NCBI GenBank assembly: GCA_964500895.1
Contig: CAZCQP010000002.1
Span: forward strand, 1,812 to 65,811
Reading direction: 5' to 3'
Source: an uncultured Eubacteriales bacterium
GTDB taxonomy: Bacteria > Bacillota > Clostridia > Lachnospirales > JAISER01
Length of the DNA: 64,000 nt
Below are positions 1,468 through 63,493 of the stretch, piece after piece. A program made the position numbers and the translations under genes. Numbering within the stretch: the stretch's first letter is position 1; every line of letters starts with the position of its first letter. The notes beneath the pieces are model-generated. The model did no database searches, had not been told where the DNA came from, and saw only the letters and a program-made list of their open reading frames with translations.

Positions 1468-3684
1468 TTATACCGTAAACTCAAAAACCATTTGGGCCAG
1501 CATTTCGGACTGGCTGTTCAGTTCTTGGGCTGCAGCAGCAGATTCCTGGGATGTTGAGGCGTTGTTTTGAACCACCTCTGCAATTTGGTTAATGCCCACG
1601 GTAATTTGGGAAATGCCCTCGGACTGCTCTTTTGTTGCGGTAAAGATGTTGCTGATAATGCCCGAAACATGGTCGATGTCTGATACAATTTGTTGTAGGG
1701 AGTGAGCGGTTAATTGTGCAGTGTTCATGCCGTCGTTAATTTTGCTTATAATGTTTGCAATCATGGCAGAGGTTTCTTGCGCCGCCTGTTGGCTGCGGCC
1801 TGCAAGGGAACGCACTTCCTCGGCAACAACACCAAACCCCTTACCCTGAGCCCCGGCACGTGCCGCCTCTACGGCGGCGTTCAGCGCCAGCAGATTGGTT
1901 TGGAATGCAATGTCGTCAATCACTTTAATGATTTTAGAAATATTGCTTGAGGCATCTTTAATTTCCTGCATAGACGTTAGCATTTTGGTCATTTCGCTGT
2001 TGCCTTCCCGGGCGCTGGTCATGGATTTTTGTGATAAAGCATTGGCTGTTTGGGCATCTTGGGCGGTGCTGTGGGTTTGTTCATTAATGGTGATGACCGA
2101 GGCATTCAGTTCTTCCACAGCGCTGGCCTGCATACTGGCACCGTTGGCCAGGTCCATGGAAGATTCAGAAATTTGCTTGGCACCACTTAAAACGTTTTCT
2201 GCCGAAGCTTTAATATCGCTGATGGTGGAGCGAAGGGTGCAAGAAATATGGTTAATGGATTTCTTGATGAAATCAAACTGCCCCACATAATCACGTTGGA
2301 TAGACGCCCTTAAATCGCCTGCGGCTAGGGTGCCCAACACTTGTGTCATTTCATTAATATATGCACCGGTAGCTTTCACCATGGTATCGAAAGAATTGGC
2401 CATTTCGGCAAAGCTGCCTTGGTGGTTTTTGTTAATGCTTACGTCAAAGTTGCCCTGGGAAAGCTGGGACAACACCTGGTTGGCCTCATGGATAGGGGTG
2501 TTAACCGCTTGCAGCAGGTTGTTTAAGCCCTGGGTTAGGGCGTTCCAGTCACCGTTATATTTGCTGGCATCTACCTGTGTGTCCAGCTGGCCGCTCATGG
2601 CGGCGTTAATCAAAGCGTTGATGTCACCGCTGACGGATGAAAGGTTGCTTTGCAGTTCTTCAAAATACTGGTTGGCAATGGCTTTTTTCCCGGGTAATTG
2701 GGCAAGCTGGGTATTAAAATCCCCTTCGCCAAATTTGCTAAAGGCTTCCAGCACATGCATGTGGTCGTTTACCAGGGCAGATACAGTGTTGTTGATGGCG
2801 CTGGCTACATTTTGATATTCTCCGTCAAACACATCTTCCGGGATTCTGGCGTCTAGGTCACCTTTTTCCAATTCGCCGGACATCCAGTTAATTTTATTCA
2901 TCAGCAAGAAGATAATATCCCGAAGTCTTATAAAGGACTGTGCCAGCATACCAATTTCATCGTTGCTTTGGTAATTGATGCTGACGTTTAAGTCGCCTTG
3001 GGACATTTTCTGCGCCACATCTTCTAATACCTTCACCGGTGTTTGAATGGATTTGGTTATGAGATAAACCATGCCAATAACCAGCAGCATTCCAGCGCCT
3101 AAAACGCCAATGACTACCCCTATGGCAAAAATGTATGTACTGTGGGCCATGCTCGTTTGTTCGGCGGTTTCAGCATCCTGTGCGGCAGTCATTTCAGTTA
3201 GAACGCTGGCGGCATTGTCTATAGCCGGGGCATACTGGGCCGAAAATATGGCTGTGCCTTCATTCAAAGATTCCACTGTATTTTCTAGGGCCAGGGCATA
3301 AATTTGCTCCCGATAGGGCTTAGCTTCATTAACAATTTTCTCGAACTTGTCAAAGTAAGACGGGTCTAGTTGTGTATTGGCCTTATATGCCTCAACCGCT
3401 GTCATCATATCCGTCCGAGCCTGGTCTGCAGCAGCCATGGCTTGCTTGATTTGCTCTGGATCTGAAACCACAAGGGTTAAAAGTATATTTTTCTGTATTG
3501 CCAACATGTGCCTGCGGATTTGCCAGATGTAGCCCGTGTTTGGGACTGTTTCAAAAGCAAACTGATCTGCAACTTTGGCCATTTTGTTCACGCAAAAAAA
3601 TGCCGATATGCCAAGAATGACAAGCATTGCAAAGACGGTACCAAAGCCAACCATCAATTTTGATTTGATTCTTAAATTTTTCAT
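1468..3684 (-). CDS. Methyl-accepting chemotaxis protein with multiple HAMP-like repeats
   Basis: 738 aa. Has an N-terminal TM, a second TM, repeated HAMP-like segments and a C-terminal signalling domain (AFQTNLLALNAAVEAARAGAQGKGFGVVAEEVRSLA). Confidence 0.9.
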   Translation of the reverse strand: MKNLRIKSKLMVGFGTVFAMLVILGISAFFCVNKMAKVADQFAFETVPNTGYIWQIRRHMLAIQKNILLTLVVSDPEQIKQAMAAADQARTDMMTAVEAYKANTQLDPSYFDKFEKIVNEAKPYREQIYALALENTVESLNEGTAIFSAQYAPAIDNAASVLTEMTAAQDAETAEQTSMAHSTYIFAIGVVIGVLGAGMLLVIGMVYLITKSIQTPVKVLEDVAQKMSQGDLNVSINYQSNDEIGMLAQSFIRLRDIIFLLMNKINWMSGELEKGDLDARIPEDVFDGEYQNVASAINNTVSALVNDHMHVLEAFSKFGEGDFNTQLAQLPGKKAIANQYFEELQSNLSSVSGDINALINAAMSGQLDTQVDASKYNGDWNALTQGLNNLLQAVNTPIHEANQVLSQLSQGNFDVSINKNHQGSFAEMANSFDTMVKATGAYINEMTQVLGTLAAGDLRASIQRDYVGQFDFIKKSINHISCTLRSTISDIKASAENVLSGAKQISESSMDLANGASMQASAVEELNASVITINEQTHSTAQDAQTANALSQKSMTSAREGNSEMTKMLTSMQEIKDASSNISKIIKVIDDIAFQTNLLALNAAVEAARAGAQGKGFGVVAEEVRSLAGRSQQAAQETSAMIANIISKINDGMNTAQLTAHSLQQIVSDIDHVSGIISNIFTATKEQSEGISQITVGINQIAEVVQNNASTSQESAAAAQELNSQSEMLAQMVFEFTV

Positions 3685-15430: not shown

Positions 15431-18400
15431 GGAATCATCGCCCTTCCCTTGCGAGGGACGACTGTTGCCCCGGTTCTTATGTGTCCGCTCCTGTAATATT
15501 TCAATCCACGTCCCCTTGCGGGGGACGACTTTCATTTTAACTCTAATTGATTTATGTTTAAAATTTCAATCCACGTCCCCTTGCGGGGGACGACGGGTTT
15601 TTTGCAAGACAATAAAGTCAAATTGATTATTTAAATCCACGTCCCCTTGCGGGGGACGACGGTACACCTCTTTTCATAAATTTTAAATTCGTAAATTTAA
15701 ATCCACGTCCCCTTGCGGGGGACGACGGCCCCAATTTTATCCGCTGGCATATCCTTTGTTTATTTCAATCCACGTCCCCTTGCGGGGGACGACCCGTGCG
15801 GCTTCCCGTTCATCGTCCGTTTGAGCTTATTTCAATCCACGTCCCCTTGCGGGGGACGACCCCTCGTAGTCCTTGTTGATGACAAAGTCCTGTCCATTTC
15901 AATCCACGTCCCCTTGCGGGGGACGACTTGGTGGCATCAATACCATCACGCACAACAGCGGAATTTCAATCCACGTCCCCTTGCGGGGGACGACCACCCA
16001 CACCGTTGCCCTGGTTTTGCTTGGCTTGCAATTTCAATCCACGTCCCCTTGCGGGGGACGACAACATTTCTTCCATTGTTAGACCGGGAAAACATTATTT
16101 CAATCCACGTCCCCTTGCGGGGGACGACCCATTACGGAGGTACAGCTTTTTGATACAAATAACATTTCAATCCACGTCCCCTTGCGGGGGACGACATGCC
16201 CGTTGACCTGGCCCCGCCGAGGGCAGGGAGTATTTCAATCCACGTCCCCTTGCGGGGGACGACGCAATAAGTCCAAGCAATTGCGCAATGGGTGGAAATT
16301 TCAATCCACGTCCCCTTGCGGGGGACGACATGGCTGTTTTTAACTATTCCAATGATTTTTGCATTTCAATCCACGTCCCCTTGCGGGGGACGACTGGATG
16401 TAATTAACGCTAATGCCAGGTGGGACAGCATTTCAATCCACGTCCCCTTGCGGGGGACGACACTGGGCGCGGACGGCTGGGTGGGGGACTTTTATAATTT
16501 CAATCCACGTCCCCTTGCGGGGGACGACCCAAACAGGCAAGGAAATAACCATAGGCGCAAAGGATTTCAATCCACGTCCCCTTGCGGGGGACGACGGGTG
16601 CGCCCGGCGCAACTAAAATCCACCTATCCCCATTTCAATCCACGTCCCCTTGCGGGGGACGACGTCCTCACTCTTCCACTTTCTGATGCGACTTTCGGAT
16701 TTCAATCCACGTCCCCTTGCGGGGGACGACCCGAGTGTACCAGACCGTCGCCGATGAGGATGATTGATTTCAATCCACGTCCCCTTGCGGGGGACGACTG
16801 TCCTGGAGTTACTGATATCGGCATATCTAGCACATTTCAATCCACGTCCCCTTGCGGGGGACGACAATGTAACCTCTTGCGCTCTTGTACAAATTTTGGT
16901 TATTTCAATCCACGTCCCCTTGCGGGGGACGACATCTTATCCTGCGCTTTGAGCCGTCCTTCAAAAAATTTCAATCCACGTCCCCTTGCGGGGGACGACT
17001 TTTGTTTTGTTGCTACGCTGAACTCGTTCTTCTATTTCAATCCACGTCCCCTTGCGGGGGACGACAGTTTCTATTGGTGATGTATACTACAACCAATCTA
17101 TTTCAATCCACGTCCCCTTGCGGGGGACGACGTCCTCACTCTTCCACTTTCTGATGCGACTTTCGGATTTCAATCCACGTCCCCTTGCGGGGGACGACTA
17201 TGGGGCCTGTCCAATCAGCTGGGGTTTAACGATATTTCAATCCACGTCCCCTTGCGGGGGACGACGACGATGGATGATGACCGTTTGGAACTACTGAAAC
17301 ATTTCAATCCACGTCCCCTTGCGGGGGACGACGGGTCGGATTATACGCTACCGAATGTATTAAACATTTCAATCCACGTCCCCTTGCGGGGGACGACACA
17401 ATAAAATACATACCCTTCCCCTTTGGGCGAATTTCAATCCACGTCCCCTTGCGGGGGACGACGATACGGCGGCCATACAGATGTTCTTTACACGTATATT
17501 TCAATCCACGTCCCCTTGCGGGGGACGACTATTCGTCTGGAGCAAATTCTTCCTGGTCGATATTAATTTCAATCCACGTCCCCTTGCGGGGGACGACCAA
17601 GCAGGGGGATAGCAATAGATACTAAGCTCTTTATTTCAATCCACGTCCCCTTGCGGGGGACGACTGTTCTGTTTATTAATACTCCGTAATTTCAACAATT
17701 TCAATCCACGTCCCCTTGCGGGGGACGACCATTTCAAAAGGGTAAGCTAATGGAGGCGATATTCTATTTCAATCCACGTCCCCTTGCGGGGGACGACACT
17801 ATGCTATCTAAGTATAATCAAAAAAAAACAAGATTTCAATCCACGTCCCCTTGCGGGGGACGACTCTTCGCTCATGTCATTTGATATAAATATTTTTATT
17901 TCAATCCTCGTCCCCTTGCGGGGGACGACTGACGATGCTGCCGTTATACCGGGCGTTATGCTATTTCAATCCACGTCCCCTTGCGGGGGACGACGACCAC
18001 TTCATCTTGTGGCATGACCTTGAGGCCATTTCAATCCACGTCCCCTTGCGGGGGACGACATTAGACGGGCAATGGAGGTACAATCGCCTAGTCAATTTCA
18101 ATCCACGTCCCCTTGCGGGGGACGACCCGGATGGACTTGCTACCGGTTGAGGTCAAAGAATTTCAATCCACGTCCCCTTGCGGGGGACGACGGTAAATCA
18201 TAATGGTCTTCGTCATCTATAATAATTTCAATCCACGTCCCCTTGCGGGGGACGACATTCCTGTGGCAAACTCACTTAACGTCTCAACAGATATTTCAAT
18301 CCACGTCCCCTTGCGGGGGACGACATAAGCTCTACAGCATGGCTAAGTACGCCATCAGCAATTTCAATCCACGTCCCCTTGCGGGGGACGACTTAATGAC

Positions 18401-24400: not shown

Positions 24401-27400
24401 AGCCTAACGAAGACCGTGAGCTTGGAATTTCAATCCACGTCCCCTTGCGGGGGACGACATTTTTTACCGGCATTGCCGGGGATTACCAAAGCAATTTCAA
24501 TCCACGTCCCCTTGCGGGGGACGACTAAGGCTTTTATGTTTTACATTCCATTCCCGTCAAATTTCAATCCACGTCCCCTTGCGGGGGACGACGGTGTCCG
24601 TGAGCAACATAAAAGCCGCCCTGCATATAATTTCAATCCACGTCCCCTTGCGGGGGACGACTGAAATTAAGCCTAACGAAGACCGTGAGCTTGGAATTTC
24701 AATCCACGTCCCCTTGCGGGGGACGACTCCGCTCGTTGTTTTGTCGTTACTAATTTTTATCATTTCAATCCACGTCCCCTTGCGGGGGACGACATCCATA
24801 GATACTCCAATGCAAGCCTCAATAAATATTTCAATCCACGTCCCCTTGCGGGGGACGACCCAAAGTCCGCCCCGTCTGGCACTACATCTGCTGGATTTCA
24901 ATCCACGTCCCCTTGCGGGGGACGACGCCCTTGAATATTATTCTACTTCCGTTCGGGAACTTATTTCAATCCACGTCCCCTTGCGGGGGACGACCAGAGC
25001 AATACAATACGCTCTTAGGGCTTCCTGCTATTTCAATCCACGTCCCCTTGCGGGGGACGACTCGGAACGAAGCTTATCGATATGCCGTACTGGTTATTTC
25101 AATCCACGTCCCCTTGCGGGGGACGACCGATGCTCTCAAGCGATTCATTCACTGCTTCTTCATTTCAATCCACGTCCCCTTGCGGGGGACGACATAAACG
25201 AGTTCGGGTTTCCTGTTATTAGCAAAGAATTTCAATCCACGTCCCCTTGCGGGGGACGACTGATTCAGAGGCAAGCAATCCTAATTTGCTAACGATTTCA
25301 ATCCACGTCCCCTTGCGGGGGACGACAAAGCTTAACGAAACTACAGTGACGGCCGCACAAATGATTTCAATCCACGTCCCCTTGCGGGGGACGACCGCAG
25401 AACAGTATTGGTCGTGGATTTGTTGATTTTATTTCAATCCACGTCCCCTTGCGGGGGACGACTGATATAATTGCTCGCTACCTCTTAATGCGTTATTATT
25501 TCAATCCACGTCCCCTTGCGGGGGACGACTGACGAAAACAACAACATTAAAGCAGGGTTTAAAATTTCAATCCACGTCCCCTTGCGGGGGACGACAAATT
25601 CTACAACCGCAACGATTGACCGCAGAATCAATTTCAATCCACGTCCCCTTGCGGGGGACGACGGGCGCAACCAAGGGCGAGCTAAAAGCGAATTACAAAT
25701 TTCAATCCACGTCCCCTTGCGGGGGACGACTTCTGCCGCACCTTTTTTGCCAAGCGCTTCACGGAAATTTCAATCCACGTCCCCTTGCGGGGGACGACCC
25801 TTTCCATAACGATAATCGGCCTAGCGCATCCGTATTTCAATCCACGTCCCCTTGCGGGGGACGACGATGACACCGGGCAAGGGTAATTTCTTCCGTATTT
25901 CAATCCACGTCCCCTTGCGGGGGACGACCACAGCAGATAGCGCAGAGCCACGTACAATTAATATTTCAATCCACGTCCCCTTGCGGGGGACGACGTTTGA
26001 CGAGTGTATGAGGGTTTTGAAACCCAATGATTTCAATCCACGTCCCCTTGCGGGGGACGACGTAAAGGGCAATAATAGCCAAACATTTGCCATAACGATT
26101 TCAATCCACGTCCCCTTGCGGGGGACGACTTGTCACAGCTTGACATTGCAAAGATTGAGCTTGACATTTCAATCCACGTCCCCTTGCGGGGGACGACGAC
26201 GCAAGTTGATGTTGATACCGATATTTTAAACATTTCAATCCACGTCCCCTTGCGGGGGACGACATTGGGACACAGCTTCAAAACTGCTGCTGCGGCATTA
26301 TTTCAATCCACGTCCCCTTGCGGGGGACGACGTGTTGCGTTCGCTCAAAACGTTCCAAACTTAACGGATTTCAATCCACGTCCCCTTGCGGGGGACGACC
26401 ACAAGGCGTTTACAATTCAGCAACGCCTATAGAGAATTTCAATCCACGTCCCCTTGCGGGGGACGACAAGCCAAGCAGCCACTTTAGCCGCCGAATATAG
26501 AAATTTCAATCCACGTCCCCTTGCGGGGGACGACATTTGATTCCGCTGATGATGCTATGGCCGAAACTATTTCAATCCACGTCCCCTTGCGGGGGACGAC
26601 ATGGTTACACGCAGTACGCATAAGGAGGCAGGGATATTTCAATCCACGTCCCCTTGCGGGGGACGACAAATGCGTTTGATTTGCCGCCAGATTATTTTCA
26701 ATTTCAATCCACGTCCCCTTGCGGGGGACGACATAAATGGCTGAAACTCACTGGAAAAAACTTAATTTCAATCCACGTCCCCTTGCGGGGGACGACTTGG
26801 TCATGGAGCTGTTAACCTTCCGCCCGCTAGTTTCTGTATCTACGTCGCCTTGTGGGGGTCTAGTATGTTTATTGGGTTTGGAGTACAAAAAAATTTCAAT
26901 TTCAATCCACGTCCCCTTGCGGGGGACGACGCTTCGTCAATTTCGGCTTGTAGTTGTTCGGTTTATTTCAATCCACGTCCCCTTGCGGGGGACGACACTA
27001 GCAGCCGGTGGAATTATTTTATAAGCGAAAAATTTCAATCCACGTCCCCTTGCGGGGGACGACGTGTCATAATCGGCATATTTAGCTTGTTCTTGTTATT
27101 TCAATCCACGTCCCCTTGCGGGGGACGACTAATTGCGTTTGCTGTGATGGCCGCATCATCTGTAGATTTCAATCCACGTCCCCTTGCGGGGGACGACGCC
27201 ACTTGTCAATCTCTGCTTGTGCGTCATCAACATTTCAATCCACGTCCCCTTGCGGGGGACGACCCCCGTCAATTTTTGCTGATCCGGCAACATACGTATT
27301 TCAATCCACGTCCCCTTGCGGGGGACGACCATTGACCAACCGTTCTGACCGAGATTATATTGTATTTCAATCCACGTCCCCTTGCGGGGGACGACCCATA

Positions 27401-28463
27401 TGGCAAATAATTATAGAGGTGATTACATGATATTTCAATCCACGTCCCCTTGCGGGGGACGACAATGTAACTTGGCTAAAGCCACGAATGCGGTTTGATA
27501 TTTCAATCCACGTCCCCTTGCGGGGGACGACAATAAATCACATCCAATTGTTTGTTTCTATTGTGCATTTCAATCCACGTCCCCTTGCGGGGGACGACGG
27601 CGTTATATTGTGCGGTGCTTGTAGTAAAAAACATTTCAATCCACGTCCCCTTGCGGGGGACGACGTTCAATGTAAATCATTAGCAAGTCATCAGACAAAA
27701 TTTCAATCCACGTCCCCTTGCGGGGGACGACTTCGCCCATCGAGCAAGGTCTTTTGTTATTTGCATTTCAATCCACGTCCCCTTGCGGGGGACGACGGGT
27801 GGAGCCAGTGGGAGAGTTTTAACACAATCGGATTTCAATCCACGTCCCCTTGCGGGGGACGACTTTCCTGTAATTTTTTCAAGCTCTGCGGAAAGTTTTA
27901 TTTCAATCCACGTCCCCTTGCGGGGGACGACGGCACGATTATCACCAACCCTTCACATTTACAAAATTTCAATCCACGTCCCCTTGCGGGGGACGACCCT
28001 CATGGGCTGCCGATGCCTGGGCCTGGGGAAAAATTTCAATCCACGTCCCCTTGCGGGGGACGACAATCGAAAAAGGCCCAAGCTACTGCTATTTCGGCGA
28101 TTTCAATCCACGTCCCCTTGCGGGGGACGACATTGCAATGTCACGGAGTTGCCCGAAACAGCAATATTTCAATCCACGTCCCCTTGCGGGGGACGACTTG
28201 TGACGCCACTTTTAGCCTAAACAACAGCATTATTTCAATCCACGTCCCCTTGCGGGGGACGACGACATGATTGGAGACACCAATGATTTGCTTGGTGGTA
28301 TTTCAATCCACGTCCCCTTGCGGGGGACGACTAATTGTCAATAGGTAAATTTGATTATTTATATGATTTCAATCCACGTCCCCTTGCGGGGGACGACTGA
28401 GGCAAGGGACGAATTGCAAGCATTGAAACAGATTTCAATCCACGTCCCCTTGCGGGGGACGAC
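15431..28463 (-). CRISPR. Type I-C-like CRISPR array, 196 repeats (32 bp) and 195 spacers
   Basis: Plus-strand repeat is ATTTCAATCCACGTCCCCTTGCGGGGGACGAC; the minus strand reads GTCGTCCCCCGCAAGGGGACGTGGATTGAAAT. I listed every repeat start by hand, from 15431 to 28432, with spacing of 63-73 bp. Spacers are mostly 33-36 nt. The degenerate terminal repeat at 15431-15462 and the AT-rich leader next to cas2 set the polarity. Confidence 0.97.
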
Positions 28464-28632
28464 AGCAAAAATGCATACATTTAACTATCATTCAAGCAAA
28501 TAAACATACAACAATTACAAAAAACACCTATGACCAAGACAAAACGCCAATTTCCAAGCATGGCAATACCCCAAAACACCTTAATTTCCAGTGCGAAAGA
28601 TGCCCCAAAACCATGTACGCTTAAGGTTCGCA
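28464..28632 (-). promoter_or_regulatory. CRISPR leader
   Basis: 169-bp AT-rich, non-coding segment between the cas2 stop codon and the first (newest) repeat. Contains an internal 35-bp imperfect tandem duplication. Confidence 0.7.
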
Positions 28633-28923
28633 CTACACCATTAAAATGCCCTCCACGTCAAACCCTGGCTTAGCCCCAACATGGGTCACTTTCGTTTTGT
28701 AATTGTTTCCCAAGTTGTAAAAGCGCAGGCTATCCTTTTCCGCATCAATGAGCGCTTCCAGCTTGTGCTTCACCTCGGCCAACTGGGTTGCGTCCAGCAC
28801 GCATTCAAAAACTGAATTTTGAACCCTCTGCCCGTAATTGACACACTGTTTAGCCACCTGCCGCAGCCGTTTGCGCCCCTGGGCTGTTTCTGTGTTCACA
28901 TCATAAGTAATTAAAACAAGCAT
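28633..28923 (-). CDS. cas2: CRISPR-associated endoribonuclease Cas2
   Basis: 96 aa starting MLVLITYDV, a ferredoxin-like Cas2 pattern. The track ORF (148 aa) extends upstream into cas1, so I use the internal start. Confidence 0.9.
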   Translation of the reverse strand: MLVLITYDVNTETAQGRKRLRQVAKQCVNYGQRVQNSVFECVLDATQLAEVKHKLEALIDAEKDSLRFYNLGNNYKTKVTHVGAKPGFDVEGILMV

Positions 28924-28931
28924 CTGTTCAC

Positions 28932-29963
28932 CTACTTCCACAAAAATGGTGGATACGCCTCTAAGTCGCCCCGCAAATGCCGGGCCAGCAGCATGGCTTG
29001 CACGTGAGGCACTAATCCCCACTGTATTTTTTCTTCCAAAAACGGATGGGTAATGGTTTCCTGTTTGCGGGCTTGCCACGCACTTAGAAATGCTTTGCGT
29101 GCGGCATCATCCATAATGACGGCGCCATTTTCCTTTACGGTGAACCCTTTGGCATGAACTTCCCGCTTGTTAATGAGGGAAAGCACAAATCGGTCGGCCA
29201 GGATAGGGCGCATTTCTTCCATTAAATCCAGCGCAAGAGAGATGCGCCCGGGGCGGTCTCGGTGCAAAAAGCCCACGTAGGGGTCTAGCCCAACCCCTTC
29301 TAGCGCCGATGCTACATCGTTTGCCAGCATGGTGTACGCAAAGGAAAGCAGCGCATTCACTTTATCCAAAGGCGGTCTTCGGCTGCGGGTGTGAAATTGA
29401 AAGTCCTCTTTTTGCTGCAAAATCAACTGGTCTATGACACCAAAATACCGAGTGGCACTTTCGCCTTCCAGGCCACGCAATTGCTCAAGGTTTTCACAGT
29501 CTTTGATGGCATCTGTAGATTTTTTAATGAGTGCAGAAGCCTTTTTTAATTGCTCAACGTCAACCCGGGCGGCGTGGTCCCGGGTGGCCCGCTCTATGAC
29601 CCAGCGTGCATTATACAGCTTGCCGATAATCATGTTTTGTGCAATGAACAGGGACTGCTGCTCGTCATCTGAAACCCTGTACTGCTTTTTGCGCAGCAAC
29701 ACATTGCCATGCACTTCCCCCACAATGCGTGCCTGAAACCGGCCGCTGGGGCTTAAAAAGCAAAGGGCAATATTTTTTGCGGCACAGGCCCGCATGAGCG
29801 CTGGGCTTGCGCCTGTGTAGCCAAAAGTTACAATGCTTTCAACATTATGTAAAGGCAAACGGATGACTTCCTGCTCCTCTTTTCGCACGACGATGTTTTC
29901 CCCGTCTAAAGAAAGATAGTGTTCAGGGGTTGTGATATACAACGTGTTCAGCAATTTTCTCAT
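28932..29963 (-). CDS. cas1: CRISPR-associated endonuclease Cas1 (I-C type)
   Basis: 343 aa. N-terminus MRKLLNTLYITTPEHYLSLDGENIVV and conserved C-terminal region (FGYTGASP, LDLMEEMRP). Overlaps cas4 by 4 nt. Confidence 0.92.
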   Translation of the reverse strand: MRKLLNTLYITTPEHYLSLDGENIVVRKEEQEVIRLPLHNVESIVTFGYTGASPALMRACAAKNIALCFLSPSGRFQARIVGEVHGNVLLRKKQYRVSDDEQQSLFIAQNMIIGKLYNARWVIERATRDHAARVDVEQLKKASALIKKSTDAIKDCENLEQLRGLEGESATRYFGVIDQLILQQKEDFQFHTRSRRPPLDKVNALLSFAYTMLANDVASALEGVGLDPYVGFLHRDRPGRISLALDLMEEMRPILADRFVLSLINKREVHAKGFTVKENGAVIMDDAARKAFLSAWQARKQETITHPFLEEKIQWGLVPHVQAMLLARHLRGDLEAYPPFLWK

Positions 29964-30625
29964 GCGTCTGCCTCCCCAATTCTTGTTTGAATATAGTGGG
30001 CCACGGATGCCTTTTTCAGCATTTTAGGAAGGCAAAAGTCCGCCAACGAGCAGGACTTACAGGCTTTGTTAGGCTTACACTTGGGTGTGTGCCCCCGTTG
30101 GTAATGCTGGTGCATTTCTTTCAGCATGTCCTTAGCGGTTTGGCGTAGGGTTTGGGTGAAGGCGACTGGCAGCCTGCGCCTTGTTTCGCCGTAAAACAAA
30201 TAGCCTTCCTGAATATCACAGACAAACATTTCCTCTAAACATAATGCTTGTGCGCACAATTGCAGTTCGTCTGCGTCATTTTGCTTTGGTGCGCCTCGCT
30301 TATACTCCACCGGCACCACACGGTATGTACCATCCCGGCCATGAATGGTGATGCCACTTGCATCTTTCCAAAGCTCCACCACATCGCAGACACCGGATAT
30401 GCCCAGATCCCGGGACATCACCGGCATACTGCGGGTGATCAGCACATCGCCCCGCTTTTCCACAGAAGCTTCATGGGCTTTTTCGTGCAGAAATCTGCCT
30501 TCAAGGGTGAGCACATTTTCCTTCCATGCCTGTTCAACGTGAATCAGCCCCCACTGGCGGCGGCAAAAGGCAAAATGTTGTATGCCCGATAACGGGAGAA
30601 AGTCTTCTTCGTTAAACATCATCAA
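29960..30625 (-). CDS. cas4: CRISPR-associated exonuclease Cas4
   Basis: 221 aa. RecB-like motif (VPVEYKRG), N-terminal Cys (HFAFCRRQW) and C-terminal Cys cluster CKPNKACKSCSLADFC. Confidence 0.9.
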   Translation of the reverse strand: MMMFNEEDFLPLSGIQHFAFCRRQWGLIHVEQAWKENVLTLEGRFLHEKAHEASVEKRGDVLITRSMPVMSRDLGISGVCDVVELWKDASGITIHGRDGTYRVVPVEYKRGAPKQNDADELQLCAQALCLEEMFVCDIQEGYLFYGETRRRLPVAFTQTLRQTAKDMLKEMHQHYQRGHTPKCKPNKACKSCSLADFCLPKMLKKASVAHYIQTRIGEADA

Positions 30626-30784
30626 CCATCCTTAACAGTGGAACCCCCAACGTTTAATCCGCATTGATATAGCATAATTTTACACCAGTTACCATTATTA
30701 TACAACAAAAAATGCATGTATCCATTATCAGTAAAACCTGGTATAATTCTGCCAACCAATTTAATTGAAGGGAAGATAAGCGTG

Positions 30785-31357
30785 ATGCAACTGCTCTTAT
30801 TGTGCGACGGGCAAAGCCAGGACTTTTGCGGCTGCAACCTTGGAGAAGCGGCTGCCGAAGCAGCCCAAAAAGTAGGTTTTGAAACAAAGCGTTTATTGTT
30901 GGATTTTGACCACATACAACCGTGCGTGGGCTGCTTTGACTGTTGGGTGAAGACCCCCGGCCTTTGCATACAAACAAAAGACAACGCCAACAGCATTTGC
31001 CGTGATTTTGCCCGCAGTGATGCGGTGCTACTGCTTTCTAAAGTGACCTACGGCAGCCATAGCCCGGACGTTAAGGCTATGCTGGACCGTATCATTCCCA
31101 ATGCATTGCCATTTTTTGAAACGGTGGAAGGGGAAATGCACCACCCCAAACGCTATGCCAAAGTTCCCAACTGGATTGCTTTTGGCTACGGCAACATGAC
31201 GGATGAAGAAGCGGATACCTTTGCAGCGCTGACGGTGCGCAACAGCCTGCACTTCCACCCACCAAAACGCTGCACCTTGCTCACCCGCAGCGCAGCAGAT
31301 TTACCCCAAGCGTTAGAGGGCTTACAGGCTTTTTTAAAAGAGGAGGGAACAAAATGA
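30785..31357 (+). CDS. Flavodoxin-like / NAD(P)H-dependent FMN reductase family protein
   Basis: Flavodoxin-fold pattern including CVGCFDCWVKTPGLC. Start chosen at MQLLLLCDG. Divergent from cas4. Confidence 0.6.
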   Translation: MQLLLLCDGQSQDFCGCNLGEAAAEAAQKVGFETKRLLLDFDHIQPCVGCFDCWVKTPGLCIQTKDNANSICRDFARSDAVLLLSKVTYGSHSPDVKAMLDRIIPNALPFFETVEGEMHHPKRYAKVPNWIAFGYGNMTDEEADTFAALTVRNSLHFHPPKRCTLLTRSAADLPQALEGLQAFLKEEGTK

Positions 31358-31998
31358 GACGCATTGTAGCCATTAACGGCAGCCCAAAAACCAAAGGGGT
31401 ATCGGCCATGCTTTTGGAACAGCTAGGCGGCCGCCTTCAAGGGAAGCTGGAAATAGAACAAGCCATGAAGCTGCTGAAAACCCCGGAAAAGCTGGCAGAC
31501 ATCCTTTCTGCCGACTGCCTGCTTATTGTGTACCCCCTTTATGTGGATGCCCTGCCTGCACCCCTTCTAAAAGTGCTAACCTTGCTGGAGGAAGCGGCCC
31601 AAACAGTAGCCCAAGACCAGCCCCTGCCAAAGGTTTATGCCCTGTGCAATTGCGGCTATGCAGAGCCACAGCAAATAAGCCTGTCTTTTAAAATGCTTCA
31701 ACATTTTTGCAGCAGGGCCGGGTTAACCTGGCAGCAGGGTGTGGCCATTGGTGCAGGTGGGTTTTTACAGCCCAAAATGAAAGATTTGACTAAAGGCCCC
31801 ACAAAACCAATTGCCCAGGCGCTGGATGCTTTAGCCAAAGCCGTCGATGGCCGGGAAGTGCCCAGCGGCCAGAACGTCTTTACAGCCCCACAAATTCCAC
31901 TGTTTATATACAAGGTAGGGGCCACCCTGTCCTGGCACATTGCAGCCCGGAAAAATGGGGCCAGCGGAAAGCTGAAAGCCAGGCCACACATGGAATGA
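31354..31998 (+). CDS. Flavodoxin-like / NAD(P)H-dependent oxidoreductase
   Basis: N-terminus MRRIVAINGSPKTKGVS is typical of the FMN-reductase fold. Overlaps the upstream gene by 4 nt. Confidence 0.6.
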   Translation: MRRIVAINGSPKTKGVSAMLLEQLGGRLQGKLEIEQAMKLLKTPEKLADILSADCLLIVYPLYVDALPAPLLKVLTLLEEAAQTVAQDQPLPKVYALCNCGYAEPQQISLSFKMLQHFCSRAGLTWQQGVAIGAGGFLQPKMKDLTKGPTKPIAQALDALAKAVDGREVPSGQNVFTAPQIPLFIYKVGATLSWHIAARKNGASGKLKARPHME

Positions 31999-57526: not shown

Positions 57527-57730
57527 ATGAACATGAAAAAAACAAAACAAAGCATGGTGCGTGTTAAGCGGTATGTGCAGGTGTTAACCCCTCAGGGGGA
57601 TGTGACCCGAACCATAGACTTGCAATCGGTTTCTAAAGAGGAAGAAGACAGGTGGCTGGCGTGCGTTTTTCAACAGGCAATGGAGCGGCTGGGGTATGCG
57701 CCTGTTGAAAGAGATGGGAAGGTTTTATAA
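57527..57730 (+). CDS. Hypothetical 67-aa protein immediately upstream of the recombinase
   Basis: ORF with RBS ggaagggg. Its end lies 13 nt before the recombinase start codon. Confidence 0.4.
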   Translation: MNMKKTKQSMVRVKRYVQVLTPQGDVTRTIDLQSVSKEEEDRWLACVFQQAMERLGYAPVERDGKVL

Positions 57731-57743
57731 GGAGGTTGCGCCC

Positions 57744-59216
57744 ATGGCCATTGCGGCGGTGTATATAAGGGTTTCCACCGAAGACCAAACCGAATTTTCC
57801 CCAGAAGCCCAGTTAAGGGCCATAGGGCAATATGCGGAAAAAAACGGATACACCATAGAGGAAGATTTTATTTTTAGAGACGAAGGCATTTCCGGCAGGC
57901 GTGCAGACAAACGCCCGGCCTTTCAAAAAATGGTGGCCATGGCTAAAAGGAAGCCAGCGCCTTTTCGGGTAATATTGGTGCATAAATTTGACCGTTTTGC
58001 TCGATCACGGGAAGACAGCATTGTGTATAAGTCTTTGTTGAAACGGGAGTGTAACATTAAAGTGGTGAGCATTACGGAACAGCTTGAAGACGACAAGTTT
58101 TCGGTCATCTTAGAAGCCATGTTGGAAGCCATGGCGGAATATTACAGCCTGAACTTGTCCGAGGAAGTGAAAAAAGGGATGACGGAAAAAGCACGGCGGG
58201 GAGAATTACAAACCCCGGCCCCTTTTGGCTATCGCATGGTGAACGGACTACTCACCCCCCAACCGGAAGAAGCAGAAATGGTGCGTGAAATTTTTAGGCT
58301 TTATGTGAACGAACGCTTGAACTTGCGGTCCATTGCCAAGCACATGAACGGGCAGGGCTGTAAAACGAAACAAGGGAACAGCTTTGACACCCGAAGCATC
58401 ACCTACATTTTGTGTAACCCCACATATACAGGCAAAATGCGCTGGACTCCCACCGGCCCGGCAGCCAGCAGGTTTCATTTTGATAACCCGGACACTTGGG
58501 TGCTGGAGGGCAAACATCCAGCCATTGTAGGGGAACAAATGTGGCAGGAGGCCAACCGGCGCATCCGAGCAGACAAAAAGCAGAAAATTCCCTTGTATAC
58601 ACGGGATGGCAACGTGCAGACCCACTGGCTGCGGGGGGTGTTGCGCTGTGGCCATTGCGGAACCACCCTGTCTTACGGGAAAGGAGCTGAAGGCAAGCAA
58701 GGGGCTTACCGATGCAGCAAATATTTAACCGGGGGGTGCCCACAACCCCAGCGCATCACCGTGGGCAAAGCGGAACAAGCGGTACTGGATGTTTTACAAA
58801 AAGATGGTGCAGCGGTGCCTCCCATAGTTTTCCAAAAAAACAATACCCATTTACAGGAACAACAAGACACATGGATGCGCTGTAAAAAAATGATCACCAA
58901 GCTGCAAGACCGGCTGGAAAAAGCACGGGAACTGGTGCTGGCGGGAATAGATACAACAGAAGAATATAGGCAAAACAAACTAAAGATAGAGCAGCAAATG
59001 AAGGAAACCATAGAAAAAATGCAGACCATAGAACAGCAGCAAAAGATGCAGCAGGAAGAAAGGGAAGAAAAAAGGGTTGGTTCGGTGGCAGATATTCTGT
59101 TATCCCAAGCCAGCTTGACAGAAAAAAACAATGCCATCCGGCAATTGGTAAGTCAAATGGTTTATGATAAACAAAATGAAACGTTAGATATTTATTATTA
59201 TGCAGTAGAAACATAA
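57744..59216 (+). mobile_element. Large serine recombinase (resolvase N-domain + recombinase domain + zinc ribbon + coiled coil)
   Basis: N-terminus MAIAAVYIRVSTEDQ carries the catalytic Ser motif. Also has FDRFARS, a recombinase domain, a Cys-rich ribbon (CGHCGTTLSYG...YRCSKYLTGGC) and a Q/E-rich coiled coil. Start chosen behind RBS aaggagg. Confidence 0.88.
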
Positions 59217-59220
59217 ACCT

Positions 59221-59236
59221 TGGCATGAAATATGCA
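59221..59236 (+). promoter_or_regulatory. Candidate sigma-54 (-24/-12) promoter
   Basis: TGGCAT-gaaat-ATGCA against consensus TGGCAC-N5-TTGCW, with correct GG-N10-GC spacing. Lies 41 nt upstream of the next start codon. Confidence 0.5.
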
Positions 59237-59276
59237 TGTATAAACCAGCAGAGAAAAATTAGAAGGAGAGATACAA

Positions 59277-60038
59277 ATGAATCATATCATTGAAAGATTA
59301 AAAACATTACAGGGGCACACAGGATTTTATTATAAAAATATGGTTACGGGGGAAACATTGGCCTATCAGGAAAACGACACCTTTACCCCGGCCAGCATCA
59401 TTAAGCTGCCCATGCTTATGCAAATTTTTCGCATGGCGGCCAAAGGGGAAGCGGATTTAACTGAACGCATTAAAATCCGGCATGAAGACAAGGTGCCTAG
59501 TTGCGGGGCGCTTAACAGATTTACCGATGAGCCGGTGGTGGATATACGCACCTTATGCAACCTGATGACAATCATTAGCGACAACACCGCCACCAACGTG
59601 CTCATTTCCCATTACGGTACAGAGCGGCTGAATAAAGGCTTTGAGGAAATGGGCCTTGAAAAAACCAGAGTGAACCGGCGGTTATTTGATATGGAATCTG
59701 CCAGAAAAGGCATTTCAAACTATATAACGCCAAAAGAAATCGGTCAGCTATTGGAACAACTTTACAACCGTACTTTTGTGAATGAGGCCGTTTCACAAGA
59801 TATATTAAACATTTTACTGGAACAGCAGTTTGACCATAAAATTCCCGGCATGTTACCTCCCGGCACAAAGGTGGCCCACAAAACAGGGGAAGATGATGAC
59901 ATTTCCAACGATGTGGGCATTGTATACGCCAAAGCACCATTTGTGGTTTGCTTTGTGTCCAATAAAACCATCAACCATCCGTTTAATATGTTCATTCGGG
60001 AAACAACCTTAGAACTGTTTAACCAGTGCAATCAATGA
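59277..60038 (+). CDS. Class A beta-lactamase-related serine hydrolase
   Basis: 253 aa with SxxK (ASIIKLP), SDN (ISDNTATN) and KTG (HKTGED) motifs. No obvious signal peptide. Confidence 0.7.
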   Translation: MNHIIERLKTLQGHTGFYYKNMVTGETLAYQENDTFTPASIIKLPMLMQIFRMAAKGEADLTERIKIRHEDKVPSCGALNRFTDEPVVDIRTLCNLMTIISDNTATNVLISHYGTERLNKGFEEMGLEKTRVNRRLFDMESARKGISNYITPKEIGQLLEQLYNRTFVNEAVSQDILNILLEQQFDHKIPGMLPPGTKVAHKTGEDDDISNDVGIVYAKAPFVVCFVSNKTINHPFNMFIRETTLELFNQCNQ

Positions 60039-60107: not shown

Positions 60108-61952
60108 ATGCTGGAAGCAACGCAAGTTGTAGAAAAACTTATGAACAACATGGGGCGGGGCTTGGTTTACATTAACCGTGAGCAACGCATTTTAATATGC
60201 AATCAAAAAGCCAGAGCCATTACAGGCATTGATTTTGACCATACCAATACCCACGAAGGCGGGCAGTTGGCTCCCGGCGACATTGTTATTATCACCGATA
60301 ACGATTTGGGTGACGACGACGGGGATTTGACCTCGGAGGATTTAAGCCTGATTAATATTAGCGATAAAGGCATTAACCAAAGGGACATGTTCATTGGGGT
60401 TGGCGTGTATAAAAACAGAAAAATTGAACCGTCTTATAAATATGTGCGGGAACACCAGCTGCGCACACCCTTTGAACTGGATGTGCATTATTTAGGCTTC
60501 CACATTGTGGCCACCATCGATACCATTAAAAAGATGATGAGCATTCAAGTGAACGGCAAAGTATTTGCCATGAATTTCTACAATGCCGTGGGGCATATGG
60601 TAGTGATTAACGGCAGCAACGGCCGGATTAAATTTTTTCAAATGCCGGGGTACAGTGTGCGGAAGGAATCCATTGGCGTGTTGCTACGGGGCGGCCAGTT
60701 TTTGGCAAAAAACAGTGATTCGGGTTTCTCCATTATCGGCCAAAAAATGTTGAATGTGTTTGAAGAAAGCCCGCTGACCCAAAAGGTGATTGAATTATTT
60801 AATGGGCAGAAAGAACCCATTAAAGATACCTTATATGAAATTAACCGGCGGCCGTTTATTTGCTCATTAATGCCCTCATTTGCAAAAGATAACCCAGAGG
60901 TTGTGGAAGGTGTTTTTATCATCTTGCAGGATGCCACCGAACTGGAAGCCATGCTGGAGGACAGAAACCGCATCATTGCGCAGATTGAGAAGAAAAACCA
61001 TGAACATAGCACCTTTCGTAACGCCTACCCTGAGGATGCGTTTCAAGACTTTGTGGGTGACGGCCCGCTAATTCAAGATGTGAAGTATTTGGCCTATAAA
61101 GCTTCCCAGACCAAGTTTAATGTGATCATTACCGGGGAGAGCGGCACAGGTAAATCCCACCTTGCCAGGGAAATTCATGATTTGCAGAACAAAGACGGTG
61201 CTTTTGTGGAAGTGAACTGTAGCACCATTGCACCTACCCTGTTTGAAAGCGAATTGTTCGGCTATGTGGGCGGGGCGTTTACCGGGGCGGCTTCTGGAGG
61301 GAAGGCTGGTTATTTTGAAGCGGCAAACAAAGGCACCATCTTTCTGGATGAAATCGGCGAAATTCCTCTGGACATTCAGGTAAAGCTGTTGCAGGTGTTG
61401 CAAAGCAAAACATTGTACAGGGTAGGTTCATCCAAGCCGGTGCATGTGGATGTGCGGGTGATTGCTGCCACCAACAAAAATTTGGAGCAGGAAGTGGAAA
61501 AGGGCAGTTTTAGAAGCGATTTGTACTACCGCATCAATGTTTTTCCCATTGAAATACCCCCGTTAAGGGAACGCAAAACAGATTTGTACGTGCTCATTAA
61601 TCAAATATTGCAAAAAACATGTAAACGGTATGAAGTGACACCCAAACAGTTTTCCGGTGAAGCTTTTCGTAAAATGCTGGCCTATAGCTGGCCCGGCAAC
61701 ATTCGGGAGTTGGAAAACATAATTGTTAGGGCCATTACGTTATGCGAATCCAACTTGATTTACCCAGAGCATATTAGCCTTACCGGCCAGAAAAATCCCA
61801 AGTCTATGAAAGAACGGTTGCAGGACGAAGAAGTGCGCATCATGCAGGAAGCCTTGATGCGTCACAACGGCGATAAACAGAAGGTGATGCATGAACTGCA
61901 AATGTCTAAATCTGTGTTTTACGAGAAATGTAAGCGGTATGGCATTGGATAG
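60108..61952 (+). CDS. Sigma-54-dependent transcriptional activator (bEBP) with N-terminal sensor region
   Basis: AAA+ domain with GESGTGKSHLA, the GAFTGA loop (GGAFTGA), an ESELFGY-type motif and a C-terminal Fis-type HTH. Confidence 0.9.
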   Translation: MLEATQVVEKLMNNMGRGLVYINREQRILICNQKARAITGIDFDHTNTHEGGQLAPGDIVIITDNDLGDDDGDLTSEDLSLINISDKGINQRDMFIGVGVYKNRKIEPSYKYVREHQLRTPFELDVHYLGFHIVATIDTIKKMMSIQVNGKVFAMNFYNAVGHMVVINGSNGRIKFFQMPGYSVRKESIGVLLRGGQFLAKNSDSGFSIIGQKMLNVFEESPLTQKVIELFNGQKEPIKDTLYEINRRPFICSLMPSFAKDNPEVVEGVFIILQDATELEAMLEDRNRIIAQIEKKNHEHSTFRNAYPEDAFQDFVGDGPLIQDVKYLAYKASQTKFNVIITGESGTGKSHLAREIHDLQNKDGAFVEVNCSTIAPTLFESELFGYVGGAFTGAASGGKAGYFEAANKGTIFLDEIGEIPLDIQVKLLQVLQSKTLYRVGSSKPVHVDVRVIAATNKNLEQEVEKGSFRSDLYYRINVFPIEIPPLRERKTDLYVLINQILQKTCKRYEVTPKQFSGEAFRKMLAYSWPGNIRELENIIVRAITLCESNLIYPEHISLTGQKNPKSMKERLQDEEVRIMQEALMRHNGDKQKVMHELQMSKSVFYEKCKRYGIG

Positions 61953-62002: not shown

Positions 62003-62379
62003 AGGCGGCCAGAAGTGTGACTGCCGATGGTATTACCAGCGCCGCCTCTGCCGTGGCCAATGGCCACCCATGCTACCCAATAGTTTGTACGTGCAACAGG
62101 TAGTCGGGGCGGCCAGTCGCCTAAGGTTAAGGCGGCTCAAGTATGTAAGCGGCCTGTGATGTCTGGCCGCCTTAGCGCTGGGCAAAGCCCAGCTTAAAAA
62201 CCGTAGAGAAGGCGGCCAGAAGTGTGACTGCCGATGGTATGCCAGCGCCGCCTCTGCCGTGGCCAATGGCCACCCATGCTACCCAAAAGTTCGTGCGTGC
62301 AGCAGGTAGCCAGGGCGGCCAGCAGCCAAAGGTTAAGGCGGCTCAAGTATGTAAGCGGCCTGTGATGTCTGGCCGCCTT
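62003..62379. repeat. Tandem pair (period 207 bp) of a ~171-bp GC-rich element with 11-12-nt terminal inverted repeats
   Basis: Unit 1 spans 62003-62173 and unit 2 spans 62209-62379. Each begins (A)AGGCGGCCAGA and ends TCTGGCCGCCTT. The first ~78 nt and last ~55 nt are nearly identical between units, while the central ~45 nt diverge. Confidence 0.85.
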
Positions 62380-62392
62380 AGCGATGCGCAGT

Positions 62393-63493
62393 TCACTCGG
62401 TATATATACGAGGTGGTCTTCCGGCAATACGGGCGACGATCTCGTTTTTGTTTGTACCAGCCAGTTTAGAGGCCTCTTCGATGGACATGGTGTTGTCACT
62501 GCCGTCACCGTAAATAATGGCCAACTCCCCTTCTTTGGCATGGGGCACCTGGGTTAAGTCTACCATACACTGGTCCATGCAAATGACGCCGATGATGGGG
62601 CACTTTACCCCTAAAATGGTCACATAGCCTTTGTCCCGCATGTTTCTGGGGTAACCATCTGCATAACCGAAAGGCACGGTGCCAATGACCGTGTCACAAG
62701 GGGCTTTCCATAAATAATCGTATCCCACACCTTCTCCAGCAGCCACAGGCCGCACTTGAGAAAGGTGGCTCACAAATGTCAATGAGGAAACCACGTCCAG
62801 ATGCCCTTTATGAAAGCCGCGTAGCCCATAAATCAGTGCCCCAGGCCGCACCATGTTCATGTGGTATTCTGGGTAATCCACCAGCGAGATACTGTCGCAT
62901 ACGTGTTTATAGCGGAATTGTGCCCCGCCGTCTTCAAGCTGTGCGGTGATGGCATTAAAGCGTTCCACCTGCTTTAAGTTTTCCTCGTCATTCACCAAAG
63001 CCAGATGAGAAAAGACCCCTTCTACTTTTAAGTAAGGCAGTTTACAAATGGCCAGCAGTTCATCCACGTTATCGGTGCCCAACCGGTGAAAGCCGGTGTC
63101 TACTTTTAAATGGACGGTAGCTTGGGTATGTTTTTCCCGGGCTAACTCGTTTAACACGGTGGCTTGCTCTAAAGAGAAGATGGTTTGGGTGATGTTGTTT
63201 TCCACCACATAAGGCAACAGCCGGTTGGGGGTATGGCCTAAAATAAACAGAGGGTATTCGGCATACGCTTGCCGCAATTCTAATGCTTCTGTTAAAGTAG
63301 CCACGGCCAGATAAGTAGCACCGTGTGCCATTAGGGTAGGGGCGATGCCCACAGCCCCGTGGCCGTAGCCATTGGCCTTCACCACGGGCATAACGGCTAC
63401 GTCTTTGCCCACCATGCCTTGAATGAGGTCCATGTTGGTGCCGATGGCATTTAAGTGAACCTGAACGTAAGTGTCTCTCAGGATTGATGTCAT
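62393..63493 (-). CDS. alr: Alanine racemase
   Basis: 366 aa with PLP-lysine motif VVKANGYGHG. Confidence 0.9.
   Translation of the reverse strand: MTSILRDTYVQVHLNAIGTNMDLIQGMVGKDVAVMPVVKANGYGHGAVGIAPTLMAHGATYLAVATLTEALELRQAYAEYPLFILGHTPNRLLPYVVENNITQTIFSLEQATVLNELAREKHTQATVHLKVDTGFHRLGTDNVDELLAICKLPYLKVEGVFSHLALVNDEENLKQVERFNAITAQLEDGGAQFRYKHVCDSISLVDYPEYHMNMVRPGALIYGLRGFHKGHLDVVSSLTFVSHLSQVRPVAAGEGVGYDYLWKAPCDTVIGTVPFGYADGYPRNMRDKGYVTILGVKCPIIGVICMDQCMVDLTQVPHAKEGELAIIYGDGSDNTMSIEEASKLAGTNKNEIVARIAGRPPRIYTE

Follow-up and report, generated by a model that had tools for sequence, protein, structure and literature searches.

Can a CRISPR-Cas locus that consists of adaptation genes and a long array, with no interference genes beside them, still be at work, and how would such a locus have arisen? 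The question is raised by a 64,000-nucleotide (nt) stretch of DNA (the window) from contig CAZCQP010000002.1 of an uncultured Eubacteriales bacterium (GCA_964500895.1), in which the type I-C genes cas4, cas1 and cas2 adjoin a CRISPR array with 195 spacers. The locus is that half of a type I-C system which serves adaptation, and partial loci of this type have already been documented. A vestige of cas7 directly in front of cas4 indicates that the operon was once complete and lost its effector genes by deletion. With moderate confidence, the locus is taken here to be an interference-dead remnant, whose array was inherited from before the deletion and whose adaptation genes have not yet decayed.

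An adaptation module without effector genes

In a search of 5.8 billion sequences, the Cas1 proteins nearest to that of the window are 84-85% identical to it and come from two loci, L002 (L011; GCA_964545475.1) and L006 (L012; GCA_964392115.1), both from study SRP242652 and both with a complete cas3-cas5-cas8c-cas7-cas4-cas1-cas2 operon. In the window, the gene order on the minus strand is cas4-cas1-cas2-leader-array, preceded by the cas7 vestige:

30624 to 30647, minus strand: cas7 vestige, the last eight codons (GVPLLRMV), in frame and directly upstream of cas4, stop codon lost

29960 to 30619, minus strand: cas4, 219 amino acids (PF01930; PADLOC Cas4c, E=2.7e-92; Cas4 of PDB 8D3L, E=4e-77)

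28932 to 29963, minus strand: cas1 of type I-C, 343 amino acids (TIGR03640, 511.5 bits against a cutoff of 385; Cas1 of PDB 8D3L, E=1e-152)

28633 to 28923, minus strand: cas2, 96 amino acids (PF09827, E=3.5e-27; PADLOC Cas2c, E=3e-44), 83-87% identical to its relatives

28464 to 28632, minus strand: leader, 169 nt, whose start TGCGAACC.TAAGCG and junction motif TTTTGCT|GTC are common to the leaders of L002 and L006

15431 to 28463, minus strand: CRISPR array of 196 repeats and 195 spacers, with the leader-proximal end at 28463 and the trailer end at 15431

Pfam recognises all three genes. The assignment to subtype I-C comes from PADLOC, whose best models are Cas1c, Cas2c and Cas4c, and from NCBIfam, in which TIGR03640 represents Cas1c. 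The window shares its leader motifs with L002 and L006, and its Cas2 and Cas4 are 83-87% and 75% identical to theirs, respectively. Unlike the window, however, the two relatives also encode Cas3, Cas5, Cas8c and Cas7. When these four proteins from L002 and L006 were compared with the 64-kb window by tblastn, the best match reached only E=0.2. Cas3 has neither a Pfam nor a tblastn match within the 64 kb, the Cascade genes cas5c, cas8c and cas7 were not found there apart from the eight-codon vestige, and no neighbouring protein matches a PADLOC defence model. An earlier note on this DNA had stated that neither flank holds interference genes, and on this point Pfam, tblastn and PADLOC agree with it within the 64 kb. 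The locus thus has the Cas1c, the cas4-cas1-cas2 order and the repeat of a complete type I-C system, but not its cas3 and Cascade genes. It has the make-up of a stand-alone adaptation module, in which intact cas1 and cas2, here with cas4, adjoin an array and effector genes are absent from the locus.

The earlier note offered three scenarios and did not choose among them. One was that an unrecognised partner, not of type I-C, processes the CRISPR RNAs (crRNAs) and uses them. The sole point in its favour is the absence of known effectors from the window. The neighbouring genes have ordinary metabolic, transport and regulatory domains, none of them matches a defence family, and a truncated canonical operon explains the locus fully. 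Such a partner is therefore very improbable.

The trace of a deletion

In the relatives, cas7 ends in GVTLLRMI*, GITLLRMV*, GVTLMRMI* or GVTLTRMV*, just as far from cas4 as the GVPLLRMV of the window. The motif G[VI].L[LMTV]RM[VI] occurs a single time in the six frames of the 64 kb, at the vestige. The vestige has a stop codon two codons upstream, and beyond that stop is AT-rich sequence unrelated to cas7. At the nucleotide level, the homology of the window with L002 sets in exactly at cas4. Together with the complete operons of the nearest relatives, the vestige argues that a full operon lost its effector genes to a deletion whose right breakpoint is at about 30648. The premise of the earlier note that an effector had been lost is borne out in this way, whereas its statement that no cas7 remnant was left is corrected by the eight codons at 30647-30624. 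The comparison of relatives at this junction, which it had proposed, shows full effector operons upstream of cas4 in the nearest relatives and no shared flank synteny from which the deletion might be reconstructed. Nor were any convincing direct or inverted repeats seen at the junction that might account for the mechanism. An inversion that merely relocated the operon was also considered and is argued against by the lack of a traceable cognate-like Cas7.

The vestige also bears on the age of the event. Synonymous sites between the window and the lineages of its relatives are saturated (dS, the synonymous divergence, is above 2), and yet six of the eight vestigial residues are still identical. 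Since the vestige is no longer translated, its legibility despite this saturation suggests that the deletion took place long after the relatives had split off.

The course of events may be pictured as follows. The ancestral locus would have been a full type I-C operon, cas3-cas5-cas8c-cas7-cas4-cas1-cas2, from which a single deletion of about 5.5 kb would have taken cas3 through all but the last eight codons of cas7, probably recently relative to the split from the nearest relatives. This would have brought cas4 up against the promoter region of an unrelated operon with flavodoxin-like genes and left behind a stand-alone adaptation module, Cas4-Cas1-Cas2, with its leader and array. Most or all of the 195 spacers were presumably acquired while the effector was still present. 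Because maturation and use of the transcripts need Cas5c, Cas8c, Cas7 and Cas3, the transcripts would now be neither matured nor used, and the locus would be dead for interference unless a non-cognate second I-C effector elsewhere adopts it.

Support for the junction

A rival reading is an assembly artefact, in which the contig would be a chimera joined at about 30.6 kb and the effector genes would be present there in the real genome. The source is a metagenome-assembled genome (MAG), and related strains with complete operons are present in the sister samples SRR10912415, -17 and -18. Against this stands the independent Logan assembly of SRR10912416 (L001), which matches the window at 100% identity between 32281 and 28432, a stretch of 3,850 nt that spans the 30.6 kb junction and reaches from the flanking gene past the second flavodoxin-like one as far as the first repeat. 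L001 collapses the array onto the far flank (15529-14909), so that a different assembler has arrived at the same two borders of the locus. Moreover, the junction has no repeat that could mislead an assembler, and a degenerate eight-codon vestige without a stop codon is not what would be expected from a chimeric join. A misassembly at 30.6 kb, which the earlier note had named as something that would undercut its case, is thus hardly credible.

The adaptation genes and the leader

Cas1 is collinear with the Cas1 of PDB 8D3L across 343/343 residues, and Cas4 aligns with its counterpart over 214 residues, including the N-terminal cysteine, the C-x2-C-x5-C motif and the RecB-type motifs CDVVE and VEYK. 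The ratio of nonsynonymous to synonymous divergence (dN/dS) relative to the relatives is 0.04-0.08 for the remaining genes and 0.04 for cas1 compared with L002. The dN distance of cas4 to the outgroup L014 is 0.305 for the window, as against 0.320-0.327 for the relatives that bear effectors. The nucleotide alignment of the window with L006 continues across the leader. To judge from these comparisons, cas4, cas1 and cas2 are full length, their catalytic motifs are preserved, and their evolution has not speeded up. The motifs, the dN/dS values and the shared leader motifs agree with the previous description of the three genes and the leader as intact. Cas4-Cas1-Cas2 would presumably still be able to insert spacers selected by their protospacer-adjacent motif (PAM) at the leader.

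The start of cas4, previously placed at 30625, is set by homology at the ATG at 30619, and the gene overlaps cas1 by 4 nt. A Shine-Dalgarno-like AAGGA, read from the sequence at 30629..30633 on the minus strand, lies inside the cas7 vestige and probably acts as the ribosome-binding site of cas4. A promoter-like TGGATA-16-TATAAT at 30697..30724, directed towards cas4 on the minus strand, matches at 10/12 positions and lies in the AT-rich intergenic region that cas4 and the divergent flavodoxin-like operon have in common. Sites of this sort are no more numerous there than expected from shuffled sequence, and the promoter is a candidate only.

The array

The 32-nt repeat reads GTCGTCCCCCGCAAGGGGACGTGGATTGAAAT in the cas orientation (minus strand). 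Searching by pattern gives 194 copies, 191 of them identical, in keeping with the near-homogeneity described earlier. Spacers are 31-41 nt long. A gap of 102 nt consists of a spacer, a degenerate repeat and another spacer, and one further degenerate repeat closes the array, so that the 194 pattern matches, one degenerate internal and one degenerate terminal repeat add up to 196. The earlier count of 195 spacers is upheld once these two are resolved:

26832 to 26863, minus strand: degenerate internal repeat, 22/32 positions matching the consensus, hairpin lost, about 25 units from the leader

15431 to 15462, minus strand: degenerate terminal (trailer) repeat, with eight substitutions and two indels relative to the consensus

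The oldest repeat of an array is typically degenerate, as it is here at the trailer end. The internal one stands out amid an array that is uniform elsewhere. Point mutation is an unlikely source of ten changes within one repeat, and for that reason recombination with a foreign array is a possible origin.

The repeat folds into a 7-bp hairpin (-12.9 kcal/mol) followed by an 11-nt tail, UGGAUUGAAAU, which is the canonical shape of I-C repeats. It has the features by which such a repeat is recognised, namely a length of 32 nt, a stable hairpin and an 11-nt tail ending in AUUGAAA(C/U). The repeats of the relatives share this architecture with compensatory changes in the stem, and those of L002 and L006 have an identical GUGGAUUGAAAU tail.

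The repeat has no match in IMG/VR and a single one among metagenomes, at positions 2462-3121 of the human gut metagenome contig ORMO01011087.1 (L091). This is the trailer end of an array that adjoins LytTR/histidine-kinase-like genes, on a contig without cas genes. Most of its copies end in AAAC and the last three in AAAT. Since its repeat is otherwise that of the window, the repeat family occurs in the human gut, too.

Is the array alive?

A long-lived, memory-only locus would be one in which Cas4-Cas1-Cas2 went on adding spacers for a long time after the loss, so that much of the array would be memory from after the loss that is never used. The intact adaptation genes and leader would allow this. 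According to Kieper and colleagues (2018), adaptation genes alone are reportedly sufficient for acquisition in heterologous hosts. The array is also long, and three protospacers were acquired twice, as had been noticed before. In two of these pairs, the copies have the same 5' end and 3' ends that lie 1 nt apart, and because of this difference they are independent acquisitions, not duplications within the array.

Neither feature is particular to this locus, however. Among about 1,500 spacers of 33 related loci with a complete I-C system there are 21 duplicate pairs, which is the same rate as the three in 192 found here, and several arrays of related complete systems have 92-115 spacers within the 10-kb limit of the flanks. 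A long array is normal in this I-C group, and duplicated spacers and array length were rejected as signs of acquisition after the loss. The readable cas7 vestige also argues for a recent loss. Unchecked naive acquisition should sample the chromosome, but no spacer matches the 51 kb of non-array host DNA in the window, a weak argument given that it covers 51 kb only. That the locus has long served as memory without effectors is accordingly quite unlikely. The signs from which the earlier note concluded that the array looks alive are either equally present in related complete systems or are to be expected after a recent deletion.

The whole array was searched against INPHARED, in both near and distant modes, and against PLSDB, and no protospacer was found. 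Five spacers searched against IMG/VR and all spacers searched against the fetched loci gave none either, and the PAM was not derived; 5'-TTC would be the motif expected for type I-C. The window has no spacers in common with L002 or L006. The INPHARED entry MT838203.1 (5.6 kb, ‘Bacteriophage sp.’, from human faeces) does match the array, but only through I-C-like repeats, and therefore contains a CRISPR array itself.

Could an effector serve the array in trans?

In type I-C systems, Cas5 takes the crRNA-processing role of Cas6 (PMC7049708; PMC3973291). If a second I-C system, or effector genes, were encoded elsewhere in the genome, its Cas5c could process the repeats, and Cascade and Cas3 could use the 195 spacers, with the redundant effector of this locus having been lost. 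A route proposed to be common is that, of two similar cas loci, one is lost while its array is kept (PMC7145637). In the complete genomes of that study (Bernheim et al. 2019), 23% of arrays are distant from cas genes, and 75% of those match the subtype of a cas cluster in trans. The window fits such a scheme in several ways: the canonical hairpin and the GGAUUGAAAU handle, which is common to many I-C systems, have been kept, the adaptation genes show no relaxed constraint, and I-C loci with effectors only exist in the family (L057 and L081).

The searches for such an effector addressed cognate-like effectors, at an uncertain coverage of the source genome, and found nothing that could be assigned to it. 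Every NCBI-sourced match to Cas7c at 75% identity or above is from another identifiable genome, and none is attributable to the source MAG. Three Cas7 matches at that level that are present in Logan only were looked up and come from runs other than SRR10912416. None of the 80 related effector loci recovered from representative genomes carries the repeat of the window. Among the 54 of these with a usable upstream flank, none resembles the window in tetranucleotide composition, the best correlation being r=0.80, while 7-kb pieces of the window itself correlate at 0.90 or more. Service in trans is a real possibility, if a doubtful one.

Several points weigh against regarding the locus as dead. 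The genome may possibly contain a divergent second I-C effector, or an unbinned contig may carry one. The intact adaptation genes and the conserved leader also fit continued selection for use. Finally, the vestige may have been kept because it carries the ribosome-binding site of cas4, which would weaken the argument that the deletion is recent. A further proposition goes beyond all of these: the organism would be without any type I-C effector, and Cas4-Cas1-Cas2 would be under selection and extending the array, its spacers either unused or read by a factor other than Cascade. This is unlikely. An interference-dead remnant, with an inherited array and adaptation genes that have not yet decayed, is the account that we prefer.

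Module loss among related loci

Of 80 related loci in representative genomes, almost every one of sufficient length to be judged is a complete I-C system. The third-closest relative, L008 (L013; GCA_964546895.1, CAZJLW010000137.1, 4542-7374), comes from the same study as L002 and L006 and belongs to the same clade: its Cas1 is about 84% identical to that of the window over the part that is on the contig, and its Cas7 is 82% identical to that of L002. In L008, only residues 453-719 of cas3 are left, and cas8c is disrupted by a frameshift and an internal deletion, while cas5, cas7, cas4 and cas1 are intact. Like the window, this locus has lost its capacity for interference and kept cas4 and cas1. 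Unlike the window, it is decaying piecemeal, and its cas5 and cas7 are still intact.

The opposite arrangement is found in two other loci. L081 (1-3391) has cas5-cas8c-cas7 followed directly by an array, without cas4-cas1-cas2, and in L057 (1655-7043) neither adaptation genes nor, within 10 kb, an array accompany cas3-cas5-cas8c-cas7. As far as their gene content goes, both are the mirror image of the window, with an effector and no adaptation module. The decay of L008 and the split architectures of L081 and L057 together indicate that loss along module boundaries, and loss of interference especially, is recurrent in this clade. In two Phascolarctobacterium MAGs (L070 and L082), insertions of 7.5 kb and 2.3 kb are found between cas7 and cas4.

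The locus is also horizontally mobile, with its I-C lineage exchanged between unrelated Clostridia, because the flanks of the closest relatives differ in base composition and lack synteny. The L011 and L012 flanks are unrelated to those of the window and have a GC (guanine plus cytosine) content of about 39%, compared with 47-48% in the window.

Neighbouring genes

On the array side, the locus is flanked by GNAT, LysE and ECF-S genes, tRNA-Trp and nrdJ, and on the cas side by two genes resembling flavin mononucleotide (FMN) reductases, followed by metabolic genes, all as described previously. The first two cas-side genes lie outside the system:

30716 or 30785 to 31357, plus strand: first FMN-reductase/flavodoxin-like gene (PF03358, weak match)

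31354 to 31998, plus strand: second FMN-reductase/flavodoxin-like gene (PF03358, weak match)

The first of these begins 23 codons further in according to the gene caller used on L001. Neither has homology to the flanks of the related loci. The large open reading frames of the other 51 kb are all metabolic, regulatory or transport-related. They include an MCP, an ABC transporter, NrdJ, an ECF S-component, LysE, GNAT, the two FMN-reductase-like proteins, a BTAD/AAA/TPR regulator, DcuC, hut genes, argG, argH and genes of the serine pathway. Rfam finds only tRNA-Trp in the window.

Towards the far end of the window, a large serine recombinase (57696-59216, plus strand) is followed directly by a class A beta-lactamase-family gene (59277-60038, plus strand), and the pair (57696-60038) may be a small mobile element. 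The intergenic region that separates a sigma-54 activator gene (60108-61952, plus strand) from an alanine racemase gene (62393-63493, minus strand) contains a 206-bp direct duplication (62003-62390; 1.9 copies, 92% identical).

Significance and comparison with known systems

The window is a well-preserved case of a class 1 locus that broke along a module boundary, with a scar that dates the loss as recent, and its significance is modest. It also carries a caution for annotation, as the length of an array, the homogeneity of its repeats and the presence of duplicated spacers do not show current function. If the genome were truly free of effectors, the window and L008 would provide natural material for the study of whether adaptation modules are retained and remain active after interference is lost. 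They would then also bear on what drives this repeated loss, for which autoimmunity, tolerance of beneficial mobile elements and pressure from anti-CRISPRs are candidates. If the memory-only reading were true, the window together with L008 would point to recurrent selection in the clade against interference but for the retention of adaptation.

The closest known counterpart of the module is the type I-C Cas4-Cas1-Cas2 complex of PDB 8D3L, 8D3M, 8D3P and 8D3Q, with which it shares the gene order, the 32-nt repeat, the conserved Fe-S cysteines and the RecB-type motifs. We take these structures to come from a bioRxiv study and from Bacillus/Alkalihalobacillus halodurans. The Cas4-Cas1-Cas2 complex is a PAM-selecting integration complex (PMC6519985; bioRxiv 10.1101/2022.05.30.494039). 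In the reference system of the solved structures, cas3-cas5-cas8c-cas7 lie directly upstream (PMC6519985), whereas the window keeps only the last eight codons of cas7.

Stand-alone adaptation modules and, more often, stand-alone effector modules have been described in numerous genomes (Koonin and Makarova 2019, PMC6452270). As in these adaptation modules, cas1 and cas2 (here with cas4) lie beside an array in the window, with no effector module in the locus. The window differs from them in that its origin by deletion can be read from the scar and in that the absence of the effector is shown for 64 kb only. Distant or orphan arrays (PMC7145637) likewise have no neighbouring interference genes and may fit a cas cluster elsewhere, but they are usually without nearby cas genes, whereas the array of the window has kept a complete adaptation module.

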